Shown one piece after another: positions 5,991-15,765 of a stretch of DNA of 24,000 nt (its first letter is position 1; each line of letters begins with the position of its first letter). The notes under the pieces were generated by a model that saw only the letters and a program-made list of their open reading frames with translations, was not told the DNA's origin and did not search any database. A program made the translations under genes and the position numbers. The stretch lies in the NCBI RefSeq assembly GCF_051714485.1, contig NZ_JBIORZ010000002.1, forward strand, positions 986,293 to 1,010,292. Direction: 5' to 3'. The stretch is from Enterococcus sp. AZ128 (lineage in GTDB: Bacteria > Bacillota > Bacilli > Lactobacillales > Enterococcaceae).

Positions 5991-6734
5991 TTAGGCTTCA
6001 GTTGGTTGTTTTTGATGTTCGCTGACAAAAGCCTTCGCTTCCTTATTGATCGTCTTCAAATCAACGCCTTGCTGCTTCGCCGCAAAAACACAGCCACAGT
6101 AGCATTGGCGGTAGACATCATACTCTTTACACATCTCGATTGACCGTTGATAACCGGAGTTCTTCTTAAAATCACTCGGTAAATAATGAGTATTATAAAT
6201 TTTTTGGATATCCATACCAATTTGATTGATCAATTGACTATTTTTTTTCGGGGAAATCGTCAAGGCGCTGCCGAAATAATCGTAGCCCCGGTCCAACGCT
6301 TCCTTCGCTGCTAAATCCAACCGCATATTGAAGCAAGCGGTACAGCGTTTGCCGCCTTCCGGTTCTTCCGTCAGATTTTTTTGCTGCATCACTTGGATGA
6401 ATTCGTTTGGTTTGTAATCATCAATGATCAGATCCACATGATTGTCAGTCGCGGCGTTAAAGTCATTGATAAATTTTTCCTGAACCAAAACCCGCCGTTG
6501 GTACTCACTTTCAGGATGAATATTGGAATTAGAGAAGAAGATCGTGATATCCGCATGCTGAGTCAAAAATTCCAATGTGTATGTACTGCACGGCGCACAG
6601 CAGGAATGAATCAGAATTCTAGGGCGTACGTCCGCTTTTTCCCATGATTGAATCATCTTATGGAGGACACGATCATAATTTATTTTTTGGTTGCTCATCT
6701 TTTCAACGATTTCCGTTGCATCAATAGTATTCAT
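5991..6734 (-). CDS. queH: epoxyqueuosine reductase QueH (DUF208 family)
   Basis: Cys motifs HSCCAPCS, GGKRCTACF and YRQCYCGCVF are characteristic of QueH/DUF208. I moved the start to ATG 6734 (MNTIDATE...), which is preceded by AGGTGA. The ORF-track extension to 6866 has no RBS and runs into the promoter region. Confidence 0.85.
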   Translation of the reverse strand: MNTIDATEIVEKMSNQKINYDRVLHKMIQSWEKADVRPRILIHSCCAPCSTYTLEFLTQHADITIFFSNSNIHPESEYQRRVLVQEKFINDFNAATDNHVDLIIDDYKPNEFIQVMQQKNLTEEPEGGKRCTACFNMRLDLAAKEALDRGYDYFGSALTISPKKNSQLINQIGMDIQKIYNTHYLPSDFKKNSGYQRSIEMCKEYDVYRQCYCGCVFAAKQQGVDLKTINKEAKAFVSEHQKQPTEA

Positions 6735-6866
6735 AAAATCACCTGTTGGTATTATAAGCGAAACAGGGTCGGAAAGAAAGCTGGATAAAAAGATATTCCT
6801 ATTAAAACCGTCTGGCCTAAAACTAAAAAAAGTCTGAGAATGATTGAATTTTTTTAAATTGCGCAT

Positions 6867-6892
6867 ATAGTATATACTGTTAGGTATATACC
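6867..6892. promoter_or_regulatory. paired palindromic operator candidates (AGTATATACT 6869-6878 and GGTATATACC 6883-6892) in the divergent queH/gntR intergenic region
   Basis: Two perfect 10-bp palindromes lie 14 bp centre to centre. The reverse complement of 6867-6891 matches 10187-10211 at 23 of 25 positions. The GT-N4-AC core fits the general GntR/HutC operator pattern. Confidence 0.55.
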
Positions 6893-6978
6893 GAATGTAT
6901 TTTTAATCGGTAAAGTTGGTCTAGCCAATTTGACGAAGAATCAGTATAGTGAGGTTGAGAATACTTTCGACATCGTAG

Positions 6979-7085
6979 AAATAAATCCGTTAATAAGAAT
7001 AAGGATACCAGTTTCTCTCGCATTTTCAATGGGGTAGAGAAATGGTATACGGCAAGAAAAATAAATCCATTATTAAGAATAAGGA
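6979..7085 (+). repeat. 27-nt direct repeat pair (6979-7005 and 7059-7085, 25/27 identical) flanking a hairpin (7005-7048)
   Basis: AAATAAATCCGTTAATAAGAATAAGGA versus AAATAAATCCATTATTAAGAATAAGGA. The second copy supplies the AAGGAG RBS of the gntR gene. Between the copies, ATACCAGTTTCTC pairs with GAGAAATGGTAT (12 bp, one bulged G). Confidence 0.7.
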
Positions 7086-7091
7086 GAGAAT

Positions 7092-7823
7092 ATGGAAGAG
7101 AAAAAAACGACAAAGGCGAAATTTGATCAGGTATCTGCTGAGATCGAGAAGCGCATTCACGAAGGGATGTATGTCAGTTCGCAAAAATTGCCCTCTGAGT
7201 ATGATCTAGCTAAGGAATTTGATTGCAGCCGCCTGACGATTCGTAAAGCGATCGATGATTTGATCAATAAGAATATTTTGGTTAAGCGGCGCGGAAAAGG
7301 CAGTTATGTGATGTCGCAGCCAAAGATCCAAAGCGGGCGTTCGGGTCTACAAGGCTTTACCGAAGCGGCGAAATCGTATGGCAAAACCAGCAGTACGGAA
7401 GTCATTTCATTCCAAAAGGTTGAAGAACCATCAGAAGAAATTCTGAACGCGTTGCAGTTAGAAGCAGATCATCCAATCTATGAATTGGTTCGCCGCCGAA
7501 TTTTGGACAATGAACCAATGACGGTCGAAAAGATTTATTTATCAGAGTATTACGTTAAAGGATTGACTAAGGAAGATTTTAACGGCTCTTTATTTAAATT
7601 GCTGGAGGAAAAGACCGAGATCGCCTATTCACATCAAGAGGTCGAGGCAATCTTAGTCAAACCGGATCTTTCAAAATTATTAGACGTTCCTATGGGTGAC
7701 CCATTATTACAAGTTTATTCAGTGACCTATGCACTGGACGCGACACCGATTTTTTACGATATTTCTTATTATCGTTCGGATCGCTATGTATTCAAAACAA
7801 CCCTTACTCGTTATAACCATTAG
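7092..7823 (+). CDS. GntR-family transcriptional regulator, HutC subfamily (wHTH plus UTRA effector domain)
   Basis: N-terminal GntR wHTH (KLPSEYDLAKEFDCSRLTIRKAIDDLINKNILVKRRGKGSYV) followed by a UTRA-like C-terminal domain, 243 aa. RBS AAGGAG at 7081-7086. Confidence 0.9.
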   Translation: MEEKKTTKAKFDQVSAEIEKRIHEGMYVSSQKLPSEYDLAKEFDCSRLTIRKAIDDLINKNILVKRRGKGSYVMSQPKIQSGRSGLQGFTEAAKSYGKTSSTEVISFQKVEEPSEEILNALQLEADHPIYELVRRRILDNEPMTVEKIYLSEYYVKGLTKEDFNGSLFKLLEEKTEIAYSHQEVEAILVKPDLSKLLDVPMGDPLLQVYSVTYALDATPIFYDISYYRSDRYVFKTTLTRYNH

Positions 7824-7858
7824 AATGGTGAAACCAAACATAATAAAGGAGTCTTCTT

Positions 7859-9160
7859 ATGTCAGTTGATTTTAGAAAAGTGATTGAAGAGAGTAAAGAA
7901 CAATTTTACCAGGATCTTGATCAAGTAATGCAAGTGGAAAGTGTCAAAGGAACACCGGAGCAGCATGCGCCCTTTGGCAAAGGCCCCAAAGAAGCCTTGG
8001 AAACGGTACTGGACTTGGCTCAGAAATATGGGTTTAAAACAGCGATCGTAAATGATGCGGTCGGCTATGCCCAATGGGGAGAAGCTGAAGAATATATTGG
8101 TGTTGTCGGGCATTTAGATGTCGTCCCTGCTGGTGAAGGCTGGTCTTTTCATCCCTTCAAATTGAGTAAACAGGACCAACGTTTTTATGGACGGGGAATT
8201 TTAGACAATAAAGGACCGATTTTAGCTTGCTTATTTGGTTTAAAGCTGTTGAAAGAACTGAATCTGCCCATTCGAAAAACGATTCGAATCGTTTTTGGAA
8301 CAGATGAAGAAAATGGCAGTTCGGACATTCCAATGTATCTAAGCGATGAAAAAGCGCCTGAATTCGGCTTCACTCCAGACTGTAAATATCCAGTGGTGTA
8401 TGGTGAGCGGGGCATTGTGAATTATGATATTTTGACAGCGTTTCCCGAATCGGAACTGAACACGCTAGGAGAATTTATGGGCGATCAGGCGCGTGACCAT
8501 GTGCCCGATGAACTATCTTTAGCCATTGATGGAAAAACAATTCGTGTAATTGGAAAAAGAGCGCCTTCGAATGCGCCAGAACTTGGCGAAAATGCGATCA
8601 CCTTATTAGCTGAAAAAATCACTCAAGAGGGGCTGACTACGGGCAGCTTGGCGGATTATTTCTTATGGATCGTAAAAAGCTTAGCTAATCAGCATTATGG
8701 TGAAGGCTTAGGTATCGATTTTTCAGATGCGGATAGTGGGAAGTTAATGATCACGCCATATCAGTTAGTCAAAAAAGATGGACAGCTAGCGCTTTCTGTT
8801 GCAATTCGTTATCCAGTCTCTGTGACGGAATCAGAAGTAACCGAGGCATTAGAGAATCATCTGCCTCTCGCTAGTCAATTAAACGTTGTCCGCCGAATCA
8901 AAAGCAGCCATTTCCCGAAAGAAGATGCGAATGTTCAAAAATTGGCCAATGTTTATGAAGAAGTGACTGGTTTAGATGGGACACCTGTGACAACGACTGG
9001 GGCTACTTATGCTCGTTTTGTCCCGAATATCGTCGCATTTGGTCCATCATTTCCGGGTCAAAAAGGCATCGCTCATAATCAAGATGAATACATGGATGAA
9101 GAGGATCTGCTATTAAACATGGAAATCTATATGCGGGCCATGTTGAAATTAATTGAATAA
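7859..9160 (+). CDS. M20-family dipeptidase (Sapep/PepV-like)
   Basis: M20 metal and catalytic motifs GHLDVVP, GRGILDNKGP and GTDEENG. RBS AAAGGAG at 7845-7851. Only 35 nt separate it from gntR and there is no terminator, so it is probably co-transcribed. Confidence 0.85.
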   Translation: MSVDFRKVIEESKEQFYQDLDQVMQVESVKGTPEQHAPFGKGPKEALETVLDLAQKYGFKTAIVNDAVGYAQWGEAEEYIGVVGHLDVVPAGEGWSFHPFKLSKQDQRFYGRGILDNKGPILACLFGLKLLKELNLPIRKTIRIVFGTDEENGSSDIPMYLSDEKAPEFGFTPDCKYPVVYGERGIVNYDILTAFPESELNTLGEFMGDQARDHVPDELSLAIDGKTIRVIGKRAPSNAPELGENAITLLAEKITQEGLTTGSLADYFLWIVKSLANQHYGEGLGIDFSDADSGKLMITPYQLVKKDGQLALSVAIRYPVSVTESEVTEALENHLPLASQLNVVRRIKSSHFPKEDANVQKLANVYEEVTGLDGTPVTTTGATYARFVPNIVAFGPSFPGQKGIAHNQDEYMDEEDLLLNMEIYMRAMLKLIE

Positions 9161-9178
9161 ATGGACTTGTTGTACTAT

Positions 9179-9240
9179 AAATCGAGTCGCTGGGTAGAAA
9201 GTTGGAAAGGGTAGTCAACTTTGCCCGCGGCTCGATTTTG
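9179..9240 (+). terminator. probable terminator (long imperfect hairpin followed by T-run)
   Basis: AAATCGAGTCGC (9179-9190) pairs with GCGGCTCGATTT (9227-9238) with one G-U. Inner pairing is GAAAGTTG/CAACTTT, followed by TTTTG. Confidence 0.5.
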
Positions 9241-9292
9241 TTGAATTTACTTTGGGTTCAATTTCTATTAATACGTTTTATATTGGCCCCCC

Positions 9293-9321
9293 TTGACAAT
9301 TATTTTAGCAGGACATACAAT
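9293..9321 (+). promoter_or_regulatory. sigma-A-type promoter of the GNAT gene
   Basis: TTGACA (9293-9298), a 17-nt spacer, then TACAAT (9316-9321). Confidence 0.6.
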
Positions 9322-9375
9322 TTCACTAGTATGAGATGAATGCGTTTTCCTGAATTGGGATGTAGAAAGAGGGAT

Positions 9376-9897
9376 ATGATGAGTTTAAATGAGAGTGTTA
9401 TTTATAGAGAACCGGTCATAGACGATGCCGAGGAGATTGTCGCTTTTTACAATCGAGTCGGTGGTGAGACAACTTATTTGAGTTTTACAGAGAACGAGTA
9501 TCCGCTAGATGTGGATATGCAGAAAGAAGCCATTTTAGGTACTGAACAGCAGCCGAATTCTGTCATGATTTTGGCAGTCGCTGGAGATCAGATTGTTGGG
9601 ATTGGAACGATTAGCTCGGGGAATAAAATTAAGGCTAGACATTGCGGAGAACTAGGCATCGTTGTCACAGAAAAATACCAAGGAAAAGGGATCGGCAGTG
9701 AGTTGATCCGTTGTCTGTTAGAGTGGTCCAGAGGAAACAGAATAACTACCAAGGTTCAGCTGGATACTAGAAAAGACAACGAAATGGCAGTGGAATTGTA
9801 TAAAAAATTTGGTTTTGAAATCGAAGGGGAATTGAAGAATACTACGTTGATTGATGGCCAATATTATCATTTATATGTCATGGGCTTGATGCTGTAG
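9376..9897 (+). CDS. GNAT-family N-acetyltransferase
   Basis: Acetyl-CoA-binding motif QGKGIGSELI followed by a YKKFGFE beta-bulge region. Start moved to ATG 9376 (MMSLNES...), preceded by AAAGAGGG (9366-9373). Confidence 0.8.
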   Translation: MMSLNESVIYREPVIDDAEEIVAFYNRVGGETTYLSFTENEYPLDVDMQKEAILGTEQQPNSVMILAVAGDQIVGIGTISSGNKIKARHCGELGIVVTEKYQGKGIGSELIRCLLEWSRGNRITTKVQLDTRKDNEMAVELYKKFGFEIEGELKNTTLIDGQYYHLYVMGLML

Positions 9898-10001
9898 ACT
9901 TTTTCTTTTTTTTGTAACTAACTATAAAAAAAGCAGAGATTCATAGTTTTAGCTTTATCACTTTCAACGACGTCACTTTTTAATCAATCATTTGCGTGAA
10001 G

Positions 10002-10037
10002 AACTACACTCCTGATCTATCGGGCGTGTAGTTTTTT
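10002..10037 (+). terminator. probable rho-independent terminator after the GNAT gene
   Basis: Stem AACTACAC (10002-10009) / GTGTAGTT (10026-10033), a 16-nt loop, and a T-run to 10037. Confidence 0.55.
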
Positions 10038-10185
10038 GATTCTCTGCAATTAATTAGAAGCGATTGAAGACTATGTTTTATTTCTATTTAAAAGTGATAT
10101 TCCATTACAGTGGCGTACCGTTTTTTTATTTTATCCTTTTTTTAACTTAGAAAACGCTAAAAAAAGATAAAAAAATTTGTCATTT

Positions 10186-10218
10186 AGTATATACAAAACA
10201 GTATATACTATTTATAAT
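10186..10218 (+). promoter_or_regulatory. operon promoter with two overlapping palindromic operator candidates
   Basis: -35 TATACA (10190-10195), 17-nt spacer, -10 TATAAT (10213-10218), with an A-rich tract upstream. AGTATATACA (10186-10195) overlaps the -35 and AGTATATACT (10200-10209) sits in the spacer, with the same 14-bp spacing as at 6869/6883. Confidence 0.55.
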
Positions 10219-10234
10219 GAGGTCAGATTTTGAA

Positions 10235-10249
10235 ATGTAAACGGTAACG
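10235..10249 (+). promoter_or_regulatory. candidate cre (CcpA) site in the operon leader
   Basis: ATGTAAACGGTAACG fits the recalled consensus WTGNAANCGNWNNCW at every constrained position except the last. It lies between the -10 and the RBS AAGGGG (10251-10256). Confidence 0.4.
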
Positions 10250-10263
10250 GAAGGGGTACGACA

Positions 10264-11217
10264 ATGGTTTGGGGAGCAATTGCCACGTGGCGTATGGCAC
10301 ACGATGGTGTGGTAGAAGCATTGCGCTTATTAGAGAAAAAAGAGGGAGCCGGCGATGCCGTAGAGACCTTGATCAAGACAGTAGAGGATTATCCTTACTA
10401 TAAATCAGTGGGATTTGGCGGATTGCCGAACGCTGAAGGTATCTTAGAAATGGATGCTGCTTTTATGGATGGAGATACCTTTGAGATCGGTGCAGTCGCC
10501 GGAATCACAGATGTAAAGAACCCGATCGCTGTTGCACGACAGTTAAGCAAAGATAAATTCAATAGCTTCCGGGTAGGTGAAGGCGCCACCAAGTATTCGA
10601 TGCTGGAGGGTTTTGAGCGGAAGAGTATGCTGACAGAGCGTGCTCATAAAATCTGGGAAAAACGCTTGAAGGAAATTCAAGAGAACAATTTGAACCCTTA
10701 CGATGGTCACGATACAGTTGGAGCGATTACGCTAGATCAAATGGGCACGATGACGGCTGGAACTTCTAGCTCCGGATTGTTCATGAAAAAACCTGGTCGC
10801 GTAGGGGATTCACCTTTATCTGGTTCCGGATTTTATGTGGATAGCGAGATTGGTGGAGCAGCTGCCACTGGATTAGGGGAAGACTTGATGAAGGGCTGTT
10901 TATCCTATGAGATCGTTCGTTTGATGGGTGAAGGCGTAAAACCACAGGCAGCTTGTGACAAAGCGGTCTATGAATTTCACGATAAATTGACAGCACGTTA
11001 TGGAAAAGCAGGTGCGTTTTCACTAATTGCGATGAATACCAAAGGCGAGTGGGGAGTTGCTACGAACGTGGAATTTACCTTCAGCGTTGGCAACGATCAG
11101 GAAGATGCGCAAATATTTATCGCTAATATGGGAGCGAACCATACTACCGATATTCAACCAATCACGCAAGAATGGTTGAAGGCTTACGAAAAACGGATTA
11201 AGGCACCAATTGAATAA
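10264..11217 (+). CDS. Ntn-hydrolase of the asparaginase-2 family, glycosylasparaginase (aspartylglucosaminidase)-like, cytoplasmic
   Basis: Autoprocessing and nucleophile site YDGHD|TVGAITLD (Thr151, ACA at 10714-10716). GRVGDSPLSGSGFY and GAAATGLGEDLMK match my recollection of the AGA motifs HDT|IGM, GRVGDSP and ATGNGD. No signal peptide; the protein starts directly at the conserved ATW core. Confidence 0.75.
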   Translation: MVWGAIATWRMAHDGVVEALRLLEKKEGAGDAVETLIKTVEDYPYYKSVGFGGLPNAEGILEMDAAFMDGDTFEIGAVAGITDVKNPIAVARQLSKDKFNSFRVGEGATKYSMLEGFERKSMLTERAHKIWEKRLKEIQENNLNPYDGHDTVGAITLDQMGTMTAGTSSSGLFMKKPGRVGDSPLSGSGFYVDSEIGGAAATGLGEDLMKGCLSYEIVRLMGEGVKPQAACDKAVYEFHDKLTARYGKAGAFSLIAMNTKGEWGVATNVEFTFSVGNDQEDAQIFIANMGANHTTDIQPITQEWLKAYEKRIKAPIE

Positions 11218-11238: not shown

Positions 11239-11568
11239 ATGAAAAAAAAGGTCTATCTATTTTGTAGTCAAGGAATGTCAACGAGTATGCTAGCTCAGAA
11301 AATGCAAAATGTTGCCGACGAGCATAATTTACCAATGGAGGTAGCTGCGTATTCCCATGGTCTATTAAACCAAATTATTAATGAGAAAAAGCCAGATGTT
11401 ATTATGCTTGGCCCACAAGTTAAATATTTATATGACGATACAGTTAAAAATTTTGGTTCTTATGGAGCACCAATTCTAATGATTAACCCTGAAGACTATG
11501 GAGTAATGAATGGGGAAAAAGTGTTAAAACAGGCAATCGTTGCTTTAAAAAAGAAAAAAACTCAATAG
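11239..11568 (+). CDS. PTS EIIB component, lactose/cellobiose (chitobiose) family
   Basis: 109 aa. Phospho-Cys context VYLFCSQGMSTSMLA resembles ChbB/CelA. RBS AGGAGAGTGGAGAG lies upstream. Confidence 0.9.
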   Translation: MKKKVYLFCSQGMSTSMLAQKMQNVADEHNLPMEVAAYSHGLLNQIINEKKPDVIMLGPQVKYLYDDTVKNFGSYGAPILMINPEDYGVMNGEKVLKQAIVALKKKKTQ

Positions 11569-11593
11569 AGAGTAAATAAAAGGGGGATACAAA

Positions 11594-12937
11594 ATGTTTG
11601 ATGCATTAGAGAAAACTATGATGCCTTTAGCTGAAAAATTAGGGAAGAATAAAGTATTAGTAGCAATCAGAGATGGCTTCTTAATAACAACGCCGTTAAT
11701 AATCGTCGGATCTCTATTTTTACTATTTAGTAACTTTCCTATCCCTGGATGGGAAAATTTTTGGACAGGGATCTTAGGGAATCAGTGGAGTTCGTGGTTT
11801 AGCAATGTTTCTGGAGCTGTTTTCGATGTAGTTGGATTTTTATCGTGTTTAGGTACTGCCTATGCATACGGAAGAGAATTGGAAGTTGATCCCATTCAAT
11901 CTGCTGCGGTAGCTGTTGTAGGCTTTCTTATCTTGACTCCAATGAGAATGAATGTGGCTGGTGTCGCTGATCCTTTAGGAGCTATTGATCTGCAATATTT
12001 AGGAACAAACGGGATATTTTTAGCTTTAGTTGTTGCTATCGTTTCTGTTTTAATATATGCTTTTGTATCCAAAAGAGGTTGGACGATCAAGATGCCTGAT
12101 GGTGTACCACCAGCAGTGTCAAAATCTTTTGAAGCACTAATTCCTAGTGGCGTGGTAATGTTATTATTCTTTTTTATAAGAATTGGGTTTGAATTTACAT
12201 CATATGAAACAGTTCATAATTTCATTTTTGAAATTTTACAAACTCCATTAAAGGGTGCGGGGAATACTTTGTTTGCCCAAATTATTTACTCGTTAGCTTG
12301 TACTGTTTTCTGGTTCTTCGGAATCAATGGTCCTGCTGTGGCAAATTCCGTTTTTGCTCCGATTAGTAAAGTGTTAACAATGGAAAATTTGAATGCTTTT
12401 CAAGCAGGTAAAGAATTGCCTAATATTTTTACTGATCCATTTTCTAACTTTTTCACTAATTATGGAGGGGGAGGTAGTACCTTATCCTTGGTCATTGTGA
12501 TGGTTATTTTCTGCAAATCTGAACGGATCAAAAAGTTAGGTAAATTATCTCTTGTACCTGGTATATTTGGAATTAATGAACCAATAATTTTTGGATTACC
12601 TATTGTATTGAACCCCATCATTATTATTCCGTTCATTTTAACGCCAACGATCAACTTATTACTCTCTACTGCGGTGACGAAACTGGGTATCATTCCGTAT
12701 ACAAATGGTGTTGCTTTACCGTGGACGACCCCAATTGGATTTTCAGGATATTTATCTACGGGGAGCTTTTTAGCAGTTATTTGGCAATTTCTATTGTTGG
12801 GTTTAGGTTGTTTCATTTATTATCCATTTATTAAAACTTTAGACAAACAATACTTAAAGGAAGAAGCTGAGGCTAGTATTCGAAAGGATGAAGAAGAAGA
12901 CCTCTCTTTTGATGATTTAAATTTTGATGATTTATAG
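11594..12937 (+). CDS. PTS EIIC permease, lactose/cellobiose family, with acidic C-terminal tail
   Basis: 447 aa, polytopic. N-terminus MPLAEKLGKNKVLVAIRDGFLITTPLIIVGSLFLL is typical of CelB/ChbC-type EIIC. RBS AAGGGGGA lies upstream. Confidence 0.9.
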   Translation: MFDALEKTMMPLAEKLGKNKVLVAIRDGFLITTPLIIVGSLFLLFSNFPIPGWENFWTGILGNQWSSWFSNVSGAVFDVVGFLSCLGTAYAYGRELEVDPIQSAAVAVVGFLILTPMRMNVAGVADPLGAIDLQYLGTNGIFLALVVAIVSVLIYAFVSKRGWTIKMPDGVPPAVSKSFEALIPSGVVMLLFFFIRIGFEFTSYETVHNFIFEILQTPLKGAGNTLFAQIIYSLACTVFWFFGINGPAVANSVFAPISKVLTMENLNAFQAGKELPNIFTDPFSNFFTNYGGGGSTLSLVIVMVIFCKSERIKKLGKLSLVPGIFGINEPIIFGLPIVLNPIIIIPFILTPTINLLLSTAVTKLGIIPYTNGVALPWTTPIGFSGYLSTGSFLAVIWQFLLLGLGCFIYYPFIKTLDKQYLKEEAEASIRKDEEEDLSFDDLNFDDL

Positions 12938-12949
12938 AAAGGAAATACA

Positions 12950-13471
12950 ATGAAAATTTTAATGATATTCGATCAAATCCAAGCAGGTTTTGGTGGGAAA
13001 GAAAACGGTGATTTAGAATTAGGTGGAAAAATGATGCCGATTGGATCAGCTAATATGTTCGATAAATATTTGGCAGATGTAAATGGACAAATCATTGGTA
13101 CTTTATATTGCGGAGATGATTTTTATCTAAACAATAAAGATATGGTCACTAAAAAATTGGTCGCAATGACAAAAAAACTTTCCCCGGATGTTGTAATCTG
13201 TGGCCCAGCCTTCAATTACGAAAAATATGGATTGCTGTGTTCAGAAGTTGGTCAGGCTATAGAAAGGAAGATACAAATCCCGGTTGTTGCTGCTATGTCA
13301 GTCGAATGTACAGAGGGAATTGCTGCCAATAAAAATAATTTAACGATTGTAAAAATGCCCAAAAAAGGTGGAATTGGCTTAACAGATTCACTGAAAAAAA
13401 TCTTAGAATTAGCGTCATTAAAAGTATCGGATCAACCTATTGGCCAGTTTGTTAAAGCTAATTGTTATTAA
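12950..13471 (+). CDS. short GrdB-N-terminal-domain-like protein (glycine/sarcosine/betaine/D-proline reductase protein B family), no Sec/Cys redox motif
   Basis: 173 aa. IFDQIQAGFGGKENGD, YCGDDFY, PDVVICGPAFNYEKYGLLCS and IPVVAAM parallel my recollection of GrdB N-termini (HYINQFFAGIGGEEKAD, ICGDxYF, PDLFIAGPAFNAGRYG, IPxVTGM). Family call is from memory only. Confidence 0.55.
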   Translation: MKILMIFDQIQAGFGGKENGDLELGGKMMPIGSANMFDKYLADVNGQIIGTLYCGDDFYLNNKDMVTKKLVAMTKKLSPDVVICGPAFNYEKYGLLCSEVGQAIERKIQIPVVAAMSVECTEGIAANKNNLTIVKMPKKGGIGLTDSLKKILELASLKVSDQPIGQFVKANCY

Positions 13472-13495
13472 TTTCTGAAAAGTGAGGGATAAATA

Positions 13496-14560
13496 ATGTT
13501 TATAGATATGCCTTTATTTGATAAATTGAGTGAGATTGACAGTGTTTCTGGTGATGAAAAGGATATTTCTCTTTTGTTAAAGTCGGAATACGAAGCGTTA
13601 ACGGATACTATTATTTATGATAACTTAGGATCTATCTTTGCTGTTAAAAAAAGCAAAAAGAAAAATGCACCCCATGTGATGATTGTTGGTCACATGGACG
13701 AAGTTGGATTCATTCTAAAAAAGATTAACGAAAATGGAACAATTAGAGCCTTAGCACTTGGAGATGTAAAATCTACCAGTCTTTTAGGAACATCGGTCAG
13801 GTTAAAAACTAGAAATAATAAAACTATTAATGGTATGTTGCTCGCCTACGACAAAACCGAAAATGTTTTGGATGAATCGAAAGAAGTCATAGTTGATTTT
13901 GGATTTGAAAACAAAGAAGAAGCAATTAGGAATGATTTGAATTTTGGAGATCGCATTGCTTTTGCAAACCAAAGTGGACAGTTTCTAAATAACAGAAGGT
14001 TATTTTCTAAAAACTGGGATGGGCGATATGCTCCGCTTATGGGTATTGAAGTATTGAAAGCTATAAAAGATCATGAATTTGATTTTGACTTATACATTGG
14101 ATGTACTGTGCAGGAACAAGTGGGTTTTAGAGGAATTCAAACAGCAACGAACCTAGTTAAACCTGATTTAGGTATCGTCTTAGATACGAATAAAGCATTT
14201 GACTATCAGACAGATATCAAAGAAAAAAATGGCGAGTTAGGAAAAGGAGTTTTAATAAATTTCTATGATACAACTGTATTACCTAATCGATTATTACTAA
14301 CAACTTTAAAAAATATTTGTGAAGAGAACAATCTTCTACACCAGTATTATTATTCTATGGAAGGTTCTGATGCAGCTTGGATAAATAAGTTGAGAGTAGG
14401 AACACCTACTCTTTTCATAAATGTTCCAATCAGAAATATGAATACTCCATCTTCTATCATGGATATAAAGGATTATGGAGCAGCTAAGAGTGCTTTACTA
14501 TTATTTTTAGAATCTCTTACTGCAAAAAAAATTCAAGAGTTTAAAGAAGAAAATCGTTGA
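13496..14560 (+). CDS. M42-family peptidase paralog with degenerate metal site
   Basis: M42 motifs GHMDEVGF, NWDGR, TVQEQVGFRG, IVLDTN and EGSDAA are present. Gln replaces the second Glu of the QEEVG motif (CAA 14117-14119), and Asn replaces the C-terminal His ligand (RNMNTP versus RYMHSP; AAT 14441-14443). RBS GAGGG at 13484-13488. Confidence 0.85.
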   Translation: MFIDMPLFDKLSEIDSVSGDEKDISLLLKSEYEALTDTIIYDNLGSIFAVKKSKKKNAPHVMIVGHMDEVGFILKKINENGTIRALALGDVKSTSLLGTSVRLKTRNNKTINGMLLAYDKTENVLDESKEVIVDFGFENKEEAIRNDLNFGDRIAFANQSGQFLNNRRLFSKNWDGRYAPLMGIEVLKAIKDHEFDFDLYIGCTVQEQVGFRGIQTATNLVKPDLGIVLDTNKAFDYQTDIKEKNGELGKGVLINFYDTTVLPNRLLLTTLKNICEENNLLHQYYYSMEGSDAAWINKLRVGTPTLFINVPIRNMNTPSSIMDIKDYGAAKSALLLFLESLTAKKIQEFKEENR

Positions 14561-14571
14561 GTGGAGGTAAT

Positions 14572-15702
14572 ATGATGTCAAGCTTCAATGAAATTGATCT
14601 AGACTTATTAAAACGATTGTCTGAAGCAGATGGTATCGGTGGAAGAGAAAGGGAAGTAAGTCGAATCGTTACTTCTTATGGTAGAAAATATAGCGATGAG
14701 ATTCAATATGATAATTTGGGTTCAGTCATCTTAAAGTCTGCTGGAAAATCCAGAGTTAATACTCCTAAAATAATGCTATCAAGTCATATGGATGAAGTAG
14801 GTTTTATGGTGAGAAGTATTACAGAAGATGGCTACGTTAATCTGTTGCCAGTAGGTGGTTGGTGGGGACATGTGATGCCAGCTCAAGAAATGACTATCAC
14901 CACGGCGAATTCAGAGAAAATTATTGGTGTAATTGGTTCAAGAGCACCTCATGGTTTGCCAGCAGAAATAAAAGAGAAAGTTATTCAACCGATGGATATG
15001 TATTTAGATCTGGGAGTTAATTCAAGAAAATCTGTTGAAGGATTAGGCGTGTCAATTGGCGATATGATTACGCCAAACGTACTATTTAGAGAGATGAACG
15101 ATTCTAACTATCTTATGGGAAAAGCGTGGGATGATCGATGTTGTGTGGGTGTGGGTCTGGAAGTTTTAAAAAACTTGAGCGAGAGTGATTATGAAGCCGA
15201 TGTTTACTTTGCTGCCACGACTCAAGAAGAAGTAGGAATTAGAGGGGCGAGAACAGCTGTTCATACGATTAAACCAGATGTGGCGATTGCTTTAGATGTA
15301 ACTACTGCAACAGATACCCCTTTTGATAAGAAAGGGATGAAGTTAGGGGATGGAGTAGTTTTATCAGTACTAGACTCACTTACTATTGGTAATAGCGGAT
15401 TAGTTCAAATGATGGAAGAAATTGTACAAGATCTATCATTAGATGTGCGCTATGATTTTATGACTGTTGGTGGAACAGATGCTTGTAATATTCACAAGAT
15501 GATGGATGGAGTTGTTAGTATGACACTTTCTCTCCAAACAAGATACATGCACTCACCAAGATTGATTATTCATAGAGAAGATTATATACAAACAATTAAA
15601 TTGGTTACGGAATTTTGCAGAAGATTGAATTTAGAAAAATTAAACCAATTAAAAGCTTCTATCGGAATAACAAATTTTAGGGAGAACCATTATTTAGATT
15701 AA
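14572..15702 (+). CDS. M42-family metallo-aminopeptidase (all canonical ligand motifs present)
   Basis: SSHMDEVGF, AWDDR, TTQEEVGIRG, IALDVT, GGTDA and RYMHSP are all present. Start set at ATG 14572 or 14575, downstream of GGAGG (14563-14567). The ORF-track TTG at 14557 overlaps the upstream stop and is less likely. Confidence 0.85.
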   Translation: MMSSFNEIDLDLLKRLSEADGIGGREREVSRIVTSYGRKYSDEIQYDNLGSVILKSAGKSRVNTPKIMLSSHMDEVGFMVRSITEDGYVNLLPVGGWWGHVMPAQEMTITTANSEKIIGVIGSRAPHGLPAEIKEKVIQPMDMYLDLGVNSRKSVEGLGVSIGDMITPNVLFREMNDSNYLMGKAWDDRCCVGVGLEVLKNLSESDYEADVYFAATTQEEVGIRGARTAVHTIKPDVAIALDVTTATDTPFDKKGMKLGDGVVLSVLDSLTIGNSGLVQMMEEIVQDLSLDVRYDFMTVGGTDACNIHKMMDGVVSMTLSLQTRYMHSPRLIIHREDYIQTIKLVTEFCRRLNLEKLNQLKASIGITNFRENHYLD

Positions 15703-15728: not shown

Positions 15729-15765
15729 AAAACTGATAGATCATGATGATTTATCAGTTTTTTTA
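15729..15765 (+). terminator. rho-independent terminator ending the six-gene operon
   Basis: AAAACTGATA (15729-15738) / TATCAGTTTT (15752-15761) with a T-run to 15764. Confidence 0.7.

Follow-up and report, generated by a model that had tools for sequence, protein, structure and literature searches.

Tandem palindromes as predicted operators of an EgaR/AlfR2-type regulator at the glycosylasparaginase operons of Enterococcus sp. AZ128

Described glyco-asparagine systems and the locus of Enterococcus sp. AZ128

The closest described systems for the use of glyco-asparagines were the alf-2 genes of Lacticaseibacillus casei and the ega locus of Enterococcus faecalis. In L. casei BL23, the cluster asdA-alfR2-pepV-asnA2-sugK was divergent from alfHC, and deletion analysis identified AlfR2 as the repressor of the alf-2 genes, with 6'-fucosyl-GlcNAc-Asn (GlcNAc, N-acetylglucosamine; Asn, asparagine) as the inducer and not GlcNAc or 6'FN (PMC6960285). 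The words operator, palindrome, binding site and promoter did not occur in the text of that paper. The ega locus was reported to have two promoters (PMC11549559), and CelA1 was named as the EIIA of the E. faecalis phosphotransferase system (PTS) for GlcNAc-Asn (PMC11976118). Here we describe a related locus in a 24,000-nt stretch of Enterococcus sp. AZ128 (NCBI RefSeq assembly GCF_051714485.1, contig NZ_JBIORZ010000002.1, positions 986,293 to 1,010,292; G000:C2:986293-1010292 in our genome numbering), referred to below as the window, from a genome of 5.06 Mb with 39% G+C. Two pairs of the palindromic octamer GTATATAC, O1 and O2 (sites 1 and 2), preceded the gene for a HutC-type regulator and the gene for a glycosylasparaginase (AGA), respectively. 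We consider these tandem sites to be the predicted operators of the adjacent regulator, a repressor orthologous to EgaR and AlfR2, and estimate the probability of this reading at about 0.88.

The organism belonged to the E. avium group, and its regulator was 95% identical to the E. raffinosus and Ca. E. murrayae proteins. As in the EgaR and AlfR2 loci, the genes for the regulator, the M20 dipeptidase and the glycosylasparaginase stood together. The gene order was the same in E. faecalis, where an egaR-egaP unit was followed by an egaG-PTS IIB-IIC-oxidoreductase (GrdB-like) unit with its own promoter. The regulators of E. faecalis and the window belonged to the same NCBIfam family and were 68% identical, and their AGA proteins were 81% identical. 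Moreover, the tandem motif was present at both ega promoters with 0 and 1 mismatch. Namely, GTATAGAC-AGTGTG-GTATATAC preceded the regulator gene, and GTATATAC-AAAACA-GTATATAC, followed by TATAAT and then by a site resembling the catabolite-responsive element (cre), preceded the AGA gene, where GTATATACAAAACAGTATATAC was identical to the window. However, the PTS IIB, PTS IIC and GrdB-like proteins of the window were only 41%, 50% and 36% identical to their E. faecalis counterparts. Relative to the ega locus, two M42 genes were added, a GNAT gene was inserted between the operons, and a third operon carried the operator.

The core alfR2-pepV-asnA2 was common to the L. casei system and the one described here. 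We examined three clusters of the L. casei group (L. chiayiensis, L. casei CP074377 and one asdA-containing cluster). The regulator of this group belonged to the family NF041547 at 341 bits, and the L. chiayiensis protein was 59% identical to the window regulator. All three clusters had two tandem sites, GTATATAC-N6-GTACATAC and GTATATAC-TAAAAA-GTATAGAT, in the divergent region between alfH and alfR2 or asdA. In L. casei CP074377 and the asdA-containing cluster, these sites had 1 and 2 mismatches and were the sole matches at up to 3 mismatches. A second AGA operon of the AZ128 genome, encoding AGA2, a ROK kinase, a permease of the major facilitator superfamily (MFS) and a fucosidase, mirrored asnA2-sugK and alfH-alfC of L. 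casei. The uptake in L. casei proceeded through the MFS permease AlfH only and needed the 6'-fucose, whereas in AZ128 a PTS route was also placed under the same predicted operator.

At the level of the DNA motif, the HutC regulator CelR of Clostridioides difficile binds a promoter with two repeats of the GTATATAC core, and the HutC consensus was given as N(y)GT(A/C)TA(T/G)AC N(y) (bioRxiv 10.1101/2021.06.26.450058). The core in the window fitted this consensus, and in both cases two repeats lay across the promoter of a PTS operon. A distance of 23 bp separates the two repeats of CelR, whereas the octamers described here had a fixed distance of 14 bp from centre to centre and formed three units in some species.

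The tandem motif, its promoters and its distribution

In the window, positions 10187-10211 (GTATATACAAAACAGTATATACTAT) and the reverse complement of 6867-6891 (GTATATACCTAACAGTATATACTAT) were identical at 23 of 25 positions. This likeness had been described, in a sequence-only reading of the window, as a shared 25-nt block of two palindromes. The match itself held, but the block did not: the constraint across species was confined to the two octamers and their outer flanks (about 18 positions), and since the spacer of site 1 was free to vary across species, the additional spacer matches between the two sites were incidental. Exact copies of GTATATAC occurred in the window at 6870, 6884, 10187 and 10201 only, two per locus, as that reading had found. 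All four satisfied the HutC core consensus GT-(A/C)-TA-(T/G)-AC, and the octamer matched the core GT-N-TA-N-AC, in line with the proposed fit to GntR/HutC operators.

Both pairs overlapped candidate core promoters. At O1, the first octamer overlapped the end of the -10 element, and the predicted transcription start fell within the operator. A TTGAA -35 element was kept at an equal distance before O1 in avium-group relatives, E. courvalinii and E. thailandicus, although the promoter spacer was not conserved. At O2, the first octamer lay on the -35 element and the second one in the promoter spacer, and TATAAT followed the second octamer at a constant distance in relatives. The consensus scan and this conservation agreed with the earlier claim of an operator overlapping the -35 element and spacer of the AGA-PTS promoter.

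The octamer alone was not an unusual word in the genome: 28 copies were counted versus 27.8 expected from a 6th-order Markov estimate. An apparent under-representation against a mononucleotide model (152 expected) vanished under the Markov model, so there was no real avoidance. In contrast to the single octamer, the pair was far above chance, with three exact GTATATAC-N6-GTATATAC pairs versus approximately 1.5e-4 expected at one fixed spacing. The genome scan gave no pair with a 6-nt gap at 1 mismatch and no exact octamer pairs at other gaps from 0 to 20. All three sites preceded regulator or AGA genes; the many copies in unrelated AT-rich intergenic regions, named in the sequence-only reading as evidence to the contrary, were not present (3 copies, 0 at 1 mismatch). 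The one genomic site with 2 mismatches, at C1:1365246, was a different palindrome. It was an intergenic, perfect 22-bp palindrome, GTATAGACAAAATTGTCTATAC (G000:C1:1365246-1365267), with the same 14-bp layout as the tandem sites and a different core.

The third tandem site was located outside the window at G000:C1:1391801-1391822, 56 nt upstream of the second AGA gene, which was followed by the genes for the ROK kinase, for the MFS permease and for the alpha-L-fucosidase (G000:C1:1387610-1394491). The genome had two Asparaginase_2 genes, each with one tandem site upstream. The two AGA coding sequences were 97% identical at the nucleotide level and their homology continued for about 95 nt upstream, indicating that site 3 was a paralogous copy of site 2. 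Its octamers were intact, though the spacer, the -10 element and the upstream flank had changed in comparison to site 2. E. sp. CSURQ0835, which carried these genes immediately after the regulator-M20 pair, had the same spacer as site 3, AATATA. Upstream of the second AGA operon there were about 1.8 kb without long open reading frames (ORFs) and an IS200-type transposase gene. Together, the CSURQ0835 arrangement, the ORF-poor stretch and the transposase suggested acquisition or rearrangement of the operon and subsequent gene conversion of AGA.

Approximately 40 species of Enterococcus, Vagococcus and Lacticaseibacillus had retained the two octamers at their 14-bp distance, and the sites were kept upstream of the orthologous regulator and AGA operons, which answered the question of comparative conservation raised with the original observation. 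Among 62 distinct sites, conservation was limited to the octamers, an A preceding the first one and either T or C following the second one. The regulator-M20 and AGA-IIB-IIC arrangements were kept in 19 named Enterococcus loci, with a tandem site before both units and an invariant 14-bp register. The O1 octamers were invariant in 18 of 19 orthologous Enterococcus loci, with freely diverging spacer and flanks; O2 was kept in all 17 Enterococcus loci compared, and its spacer, AAAACA or AAAATA, hardly varied. The AGA promoters of E. casseliflavus, E. gallinarum, E. dispar, E. canintestini and E. mundtii carried three octamers in the 14-bp register, which fits one binding unit per octamer. In the first three of these species (L069, L074, L081; ~7100-7210), GTATAGAC, GTATATAC and GAATATAC were followed by the cre-like TGAAAGCGCTA. 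The regulator-bearing loci of Lacticaseibacillus hegangensis, L. camelliae, L. jixianensis and Pediococcus stilesii (L062, L063, L065, L064), which were more distant, had a single canonical GTATATAC with a degenerate second unit before the first gene.

The distribution of the motif followed that of the regulator. The window protein scored 350.5 bits on NF041547 (GntR, LSA1692 subfamily; cut-off 275), and the next paralog in the genome reached 158 bits, making the regulator the sole member of this family among the 15 UTRA paralogs encoded there. The closest solved structure was that of Bacillus subtilis YvoA/NagR (2WV0, 4U0V, 4WWC; E = 2e-29). Of 25 Enterococcus genomes, the same 17 combined the motif with both the regulator and AGA, whereas all three were missing from the remaining 8; a control pattern gave 0 matches in these 25 genomes. 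A survey of 301 Lactobacillales genomes, where the motif was scored as a tandem site with at most 1 mismatch, found the regulator together with the motif in 29 genomes, the regulator only in 14, the motif only in 3 and neither in 255 (Fisher p = 1.6e-26, for related genomes that were not independent). All three motif-only genomes had single matches with 1 mismatch. Moreover, the gene for the regulator was no more than 8 kb away from 50 of the 56 sites in this survey.

Assignment of the sites and alternative explanations

Since the regulator was the sole NF041547 member, co-occurred with the motif and was encoded near it, and since the NagR motif of the genome was distinct, we assigned the tandem sites to the adjacent regulator. 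This agreed with the proposal of the sequence-only reading that the HutC regulator links the regulator-M20 and AGA-PTS loci, as the motif followed the regulator gene across genomes.

Several points weighed against this assignment. The 14 regulator-bearing genomes mentioned above had no tandem site at up to 1 mismatch, and some of them had a single palindrome. The whole HutC family shares the GTATATAC core, and single copies of it were located just before the genes of at least two other HutC paralogs (C1:2098386 and C1:2325947), so that cross-talk with such paralogs may occur. Site 3, as a copy of site 2, was not independent evidence. The second promoter-like element at 6922-6950 was conserved downstream of O1, and some of the regulator transcription may therefore escape control by O1. 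One regulator dimer per octamer is an arrangement that we infer as the most likely one. An additional single GTATATAC was observed inside a TTGACA-17-TATTAT promoter at C2:1390684; this copy and those at C1:2098386 and C1:2325947 probably serve other members of the family as operators.

Which of the two divergent promoters was controlled by site 1 had been left as a question in the sequence-only reading. Control chiefly of queH, or of both divergent genes, would be consistent with the divergent position of queH upstream of site 1 in the avium group, and transcription from two weak promoter-like matches on the minus strand (6970-6943 and 7029-7002) would cross the operator towards queH. However, the queH gene of relatives was 744 nt long, which in the window matched a start at ATG 6734 (247 aa), 136 bp from site 1. 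This likely start had its own AGGTGA ribosome-binding site (6744-6739) and TATAAT (6756-6751), at least 114 bp from the operator. Moreover, site 1 still stood directly before the regulator gene in five loci (L007, L010, L015, L016, L019) where the upstream neighbor was not queH but another co-directional gene. Because of this synteny and the likely queH start at 6734, site 1 is predicted to belong to the regulator operon, and its control of queH appears very unlikely. We know of no functional link between queuosine salvage and the use of glyco-asparagines.

The sites might instead be bound by another HutC paralog, such as the NagR ortholog controlling nagA and nagB. The GTATATAC core was present in some NagR dre sites, for example in the Streptococcus pneumoniae glmS site AAACAAGTATATACTGTTTT (PMC5110562), the second half of O1, GGTATATACC, resembled a dre core, and the genome encoded 15 UTRA paralogs. 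However, the nagB and nagA sites of this genome (TTGGTGTATACCAA, TGGTCTACACCA) each consisted of one palindrome flanked by TGG...CCA, in which core position 3 was C or G, whereas the tandem sites had A...T flanks and were positioned at regulator and AGA promoters, not at nagA, nagB or glmS. The sequence-only reading had named NagR- and DasR-type sites as similar. This stood for the HutC core and failed for the extended motif. Additionally, the tandem motif was found in none of the 8 Enterococcus genomes without an NF041547 regulator, and its sites clustered near the gene of that regulator as described above. Because its motif differed and the phyletic distribution did not fit, NagR was rejected as the binder, and binding by any other paralog in place of the adjacent regulator was considered highly improbable.

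It was also considered whether the regulator could bind the tandem sites as an activator or a dual regulator. Some HutC regulators are dual, as reported for B. thuringiensis NagR (PMC6141813), and O1 was located upstream of the second promoter-like element. An activating role was nevertheless scarcely plausible, given that the sites overlapped the -35 element, the spacer, the -10 element and the +1 position in every lineage with a callable promoter, and that the L. casei ortholog AlfR2 acted as a repressor by deletion analysis (PMC6960285). The least probable explanation was that the repeats have no operator role, being structural or promoter elements rich in A and T, or what is left of a small mobile or repeated element: although the octamers are AT-rich with -10-like TATATA or TATACT strings and site 3 arose by duplication, the genome contained no more than three copies, neither the 14-bp register nor the terminal G and C varied across genera, the octamers stood after the -10 element at O1 and before it at O2, and tandem octamers co-occurred strictly with one regulator family.

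Transcription units and the proposed switch

The features of the window are listed in Table 1, with gene products named from Pfam and NCBIfam matches. The hairpins and U-runs after the regulator-M20 pair, the GNAT gene and the AGA operon indicated three transcription units, where AGA needs its own promoter. The regulator and M20 genes were separated by 35 nt and kept as a pair in nearly all loci compared, and the M20 dipeptidase is predicted from this to be cotranscribed with the regulator. In the AGA operon, the intergenic gaps of the 11239-15702 block were short or the genes overlapped. Among the compared loci, only that of Ca. E. murrayae also had this GNAT insertion between the regulator-M20 and AGA operons.

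Table 1. Features of the window (positions count from the first letter of the window; promoters, operators and terminators are predictions)
Feature	Position	Strand	Remarks
queH, longest ORF (291 aa)	5991-6866	-	Start 3 nt from the operator, without a ribosome-binding site
Candidate regulator-operon promoter, TTGAAT-16-TATAGT	6844-6871	+	Consensus scan
Predicted operator O1, A-GTATATAC-TGTTAG-GTATATAC-C	6869-6892		Octamers 6870-6877 and 6884-6891; before the regulator operon; sequence and conservation
Second promoter-like element, TAGCCA-17-TATAGT	6922-6950	+	Downstream of O1; conserved in the avium group; consensus scan
HutC-type regulator	7092-7823	+	GntR winged helix-turn-helix (PF00392) and UTRA (PF07702); Pfam, NCBIfam NF041547
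M20 dipeptidase, PepV/EgaP-like	7859-9160	+	Pfam/NCBIfam
Terminator hairpin, end of regulator-M20 operon	9179-9238	+	-30.5 kcal/mol, z -4.9, then UUUUG
GNAT-gene promoter, TTGACA-17-TACAAT	9293-9321		Strong promoter of the GNAT gene itself
GNAT acetyltransferase gene	9340-9897
GNAT-gene terminator	9998-10037		Strong hairpin, then U-run
Predicted operator O2, A-GTATATAC-AAAACA-GTATATAC-T	10186-10209		Octamers 10187-10194 and 10201-10208; before the AGA operon; sequence and conservation
AGA-operon promoter, TATACA-17-TATAAT	10190-10218	+	Consensus scan, 10/12 matches
cre-like site, TGTAAACGGTAACG	10236-10249	+	AGA-operon leader, between the -10 element and the ribosome-binding site
Glycosylasparaginase AGA (Asparaginase_2; EgaG/AsnA2-like)	10264-11217	+	First gene of the operon; Pfam
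PTS IIB	11239-11568	+
PTS IIC	11594-12937	+
GrdB-like protein	12950-13471	+
M42 peptidase, first	13496-14560	+
M42 peptidase, second	14557-15702	+
Terminator, AGA-PTS operon	15729-15761	+	-15.5 kcal/mol, z -5.4, then U-run

The leader of the regulator gene (6892-7091) contained a direct repeat of the ribosome-binding-site region, at approximately 6979-7005 and 7059-7085. Operator and regulator start codon were about 200 nt apart here, compared with about 110 nt for most relatives and some 340 nt for E. malodoratus. A scan of positions 6600-10400 against Rfam, with E values up to 1, gave no matches, so this long leader corresponded to no known riboswitch or RNA family. The second promoter-like element may supply the regulator with a basal, unrepressed transcript.

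The PTS-GrdB-like-M42-M42 block (11239-15702) had 32-38% G+C versus 42-46% for AGA and the flanks. The IIB and IIC proteins of the window shared 95% identity with their Ca. E. murrayae counterparts and 92% and 89% with the E. phoeniculicola ones, but no more than about 42% and 54% with the proteins of E. avium, E. raffinosus and E. malodoratus. The divergent IIB and IIC together with the low G+C content indicated that the transporter module behind AGA was swapped between lineages, whereas the operator and AGA stayed.

The cre-like site in the AGA-operon leader presumably matches the CcpA cre consensus, and a cre-like counterpart, TGTAAACG or TGAAAGCG, was kept in most relatives and in E. faecalis. 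The L. sakei orthologs LSA1690, LSA1692 and LSA1693 were mildly up-regulated on ribose versus glucose (PMC3146418).

Judging from the position of the sites and from the orthologs, the proposed switch would work in the following way. Each 8-bp palindrome GTATATAC would bind one regulator dimer, so that two dimers, or three in some species, would sit 14 bp apart. These dimers would cover the -10 element and the start of the regulator-M20 operon as well as the -35 element and the spacer of the AGA-PTS operon, and RNA polymerase would be excluded from the core promoters. The regulator-M20 operon would be autoregulated and the AGA-PTS operon repressed, and the third site would likewise repress the AGA2-kinase-MFS-fucosidase operon. 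Repression would end when an imported glyco-amino acid, either GlcNAc-Asn with or without the fucose or a phosphorylated derivative, occupies the UTRA domain, and CcpA may add catabolite control through the cre-like site. By analogy with the induction of the L. casei system by 6'-fucosyl-GlcNAc-Asn, the effector is likely to be a glyco-amino acid rather than GlcNAc 6-phosphate.

We also put forward, tentatively and as the less probable case, a more specific scheme. A phased array of independent dimer sites, two or three octamers in a strict 14-bp register on different helix faces, that needs cooperative binding could set this regulator apart from the 14 other HutC paralogs with the same core. 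One repressor could also couple two ways of taking up N-glycan core stubs, the PTS route for GlcNAc-Asn and the MFS/fucosidase route for fucosyl-GlcNAc-Asn, and the effector of this repressor could be a shared downstream intermediate, not the fucosylated inducer of L. casei.

The locus was an orthologous instance of the known EgaR/AlfR2 regulon type with a typical HutC operator and represented conventional biology. No published operator motif for the EgaR/AlfR2 family was found in the open literature, which did not include the ega paper of Combret et al. (PMID 37977353), and open papers citing that work described no binding site. The explicit family operator motif, the strict 14-bp tandem or triple register and the third target operon may be new here. 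No new principle was gained, and the practical use lies in annotating genomes and designing experiments: the operator A-GTATATAC-N6-GTATATAC-T would allow the EgaR/AlfR2 regulon to be read from any genome sequence. In the genome of Enterococcus sp. AZ128, the PTS route and the fucosidase/MFS route would be placed under one switch. In enterococci and lactobacilli, repressors of the EgaR/AlfR2 family govern how GlcNAc-asparagine from host glycoproteins is used. The ega locus of E. faecalis was reported to matter during infection (Combret et al., Res Microbiol 175:104169, PMID 37977353), and the authors of the L. casei study suggested that the use of glyco-asparagines may aid gut colonisation (PMC6960285).

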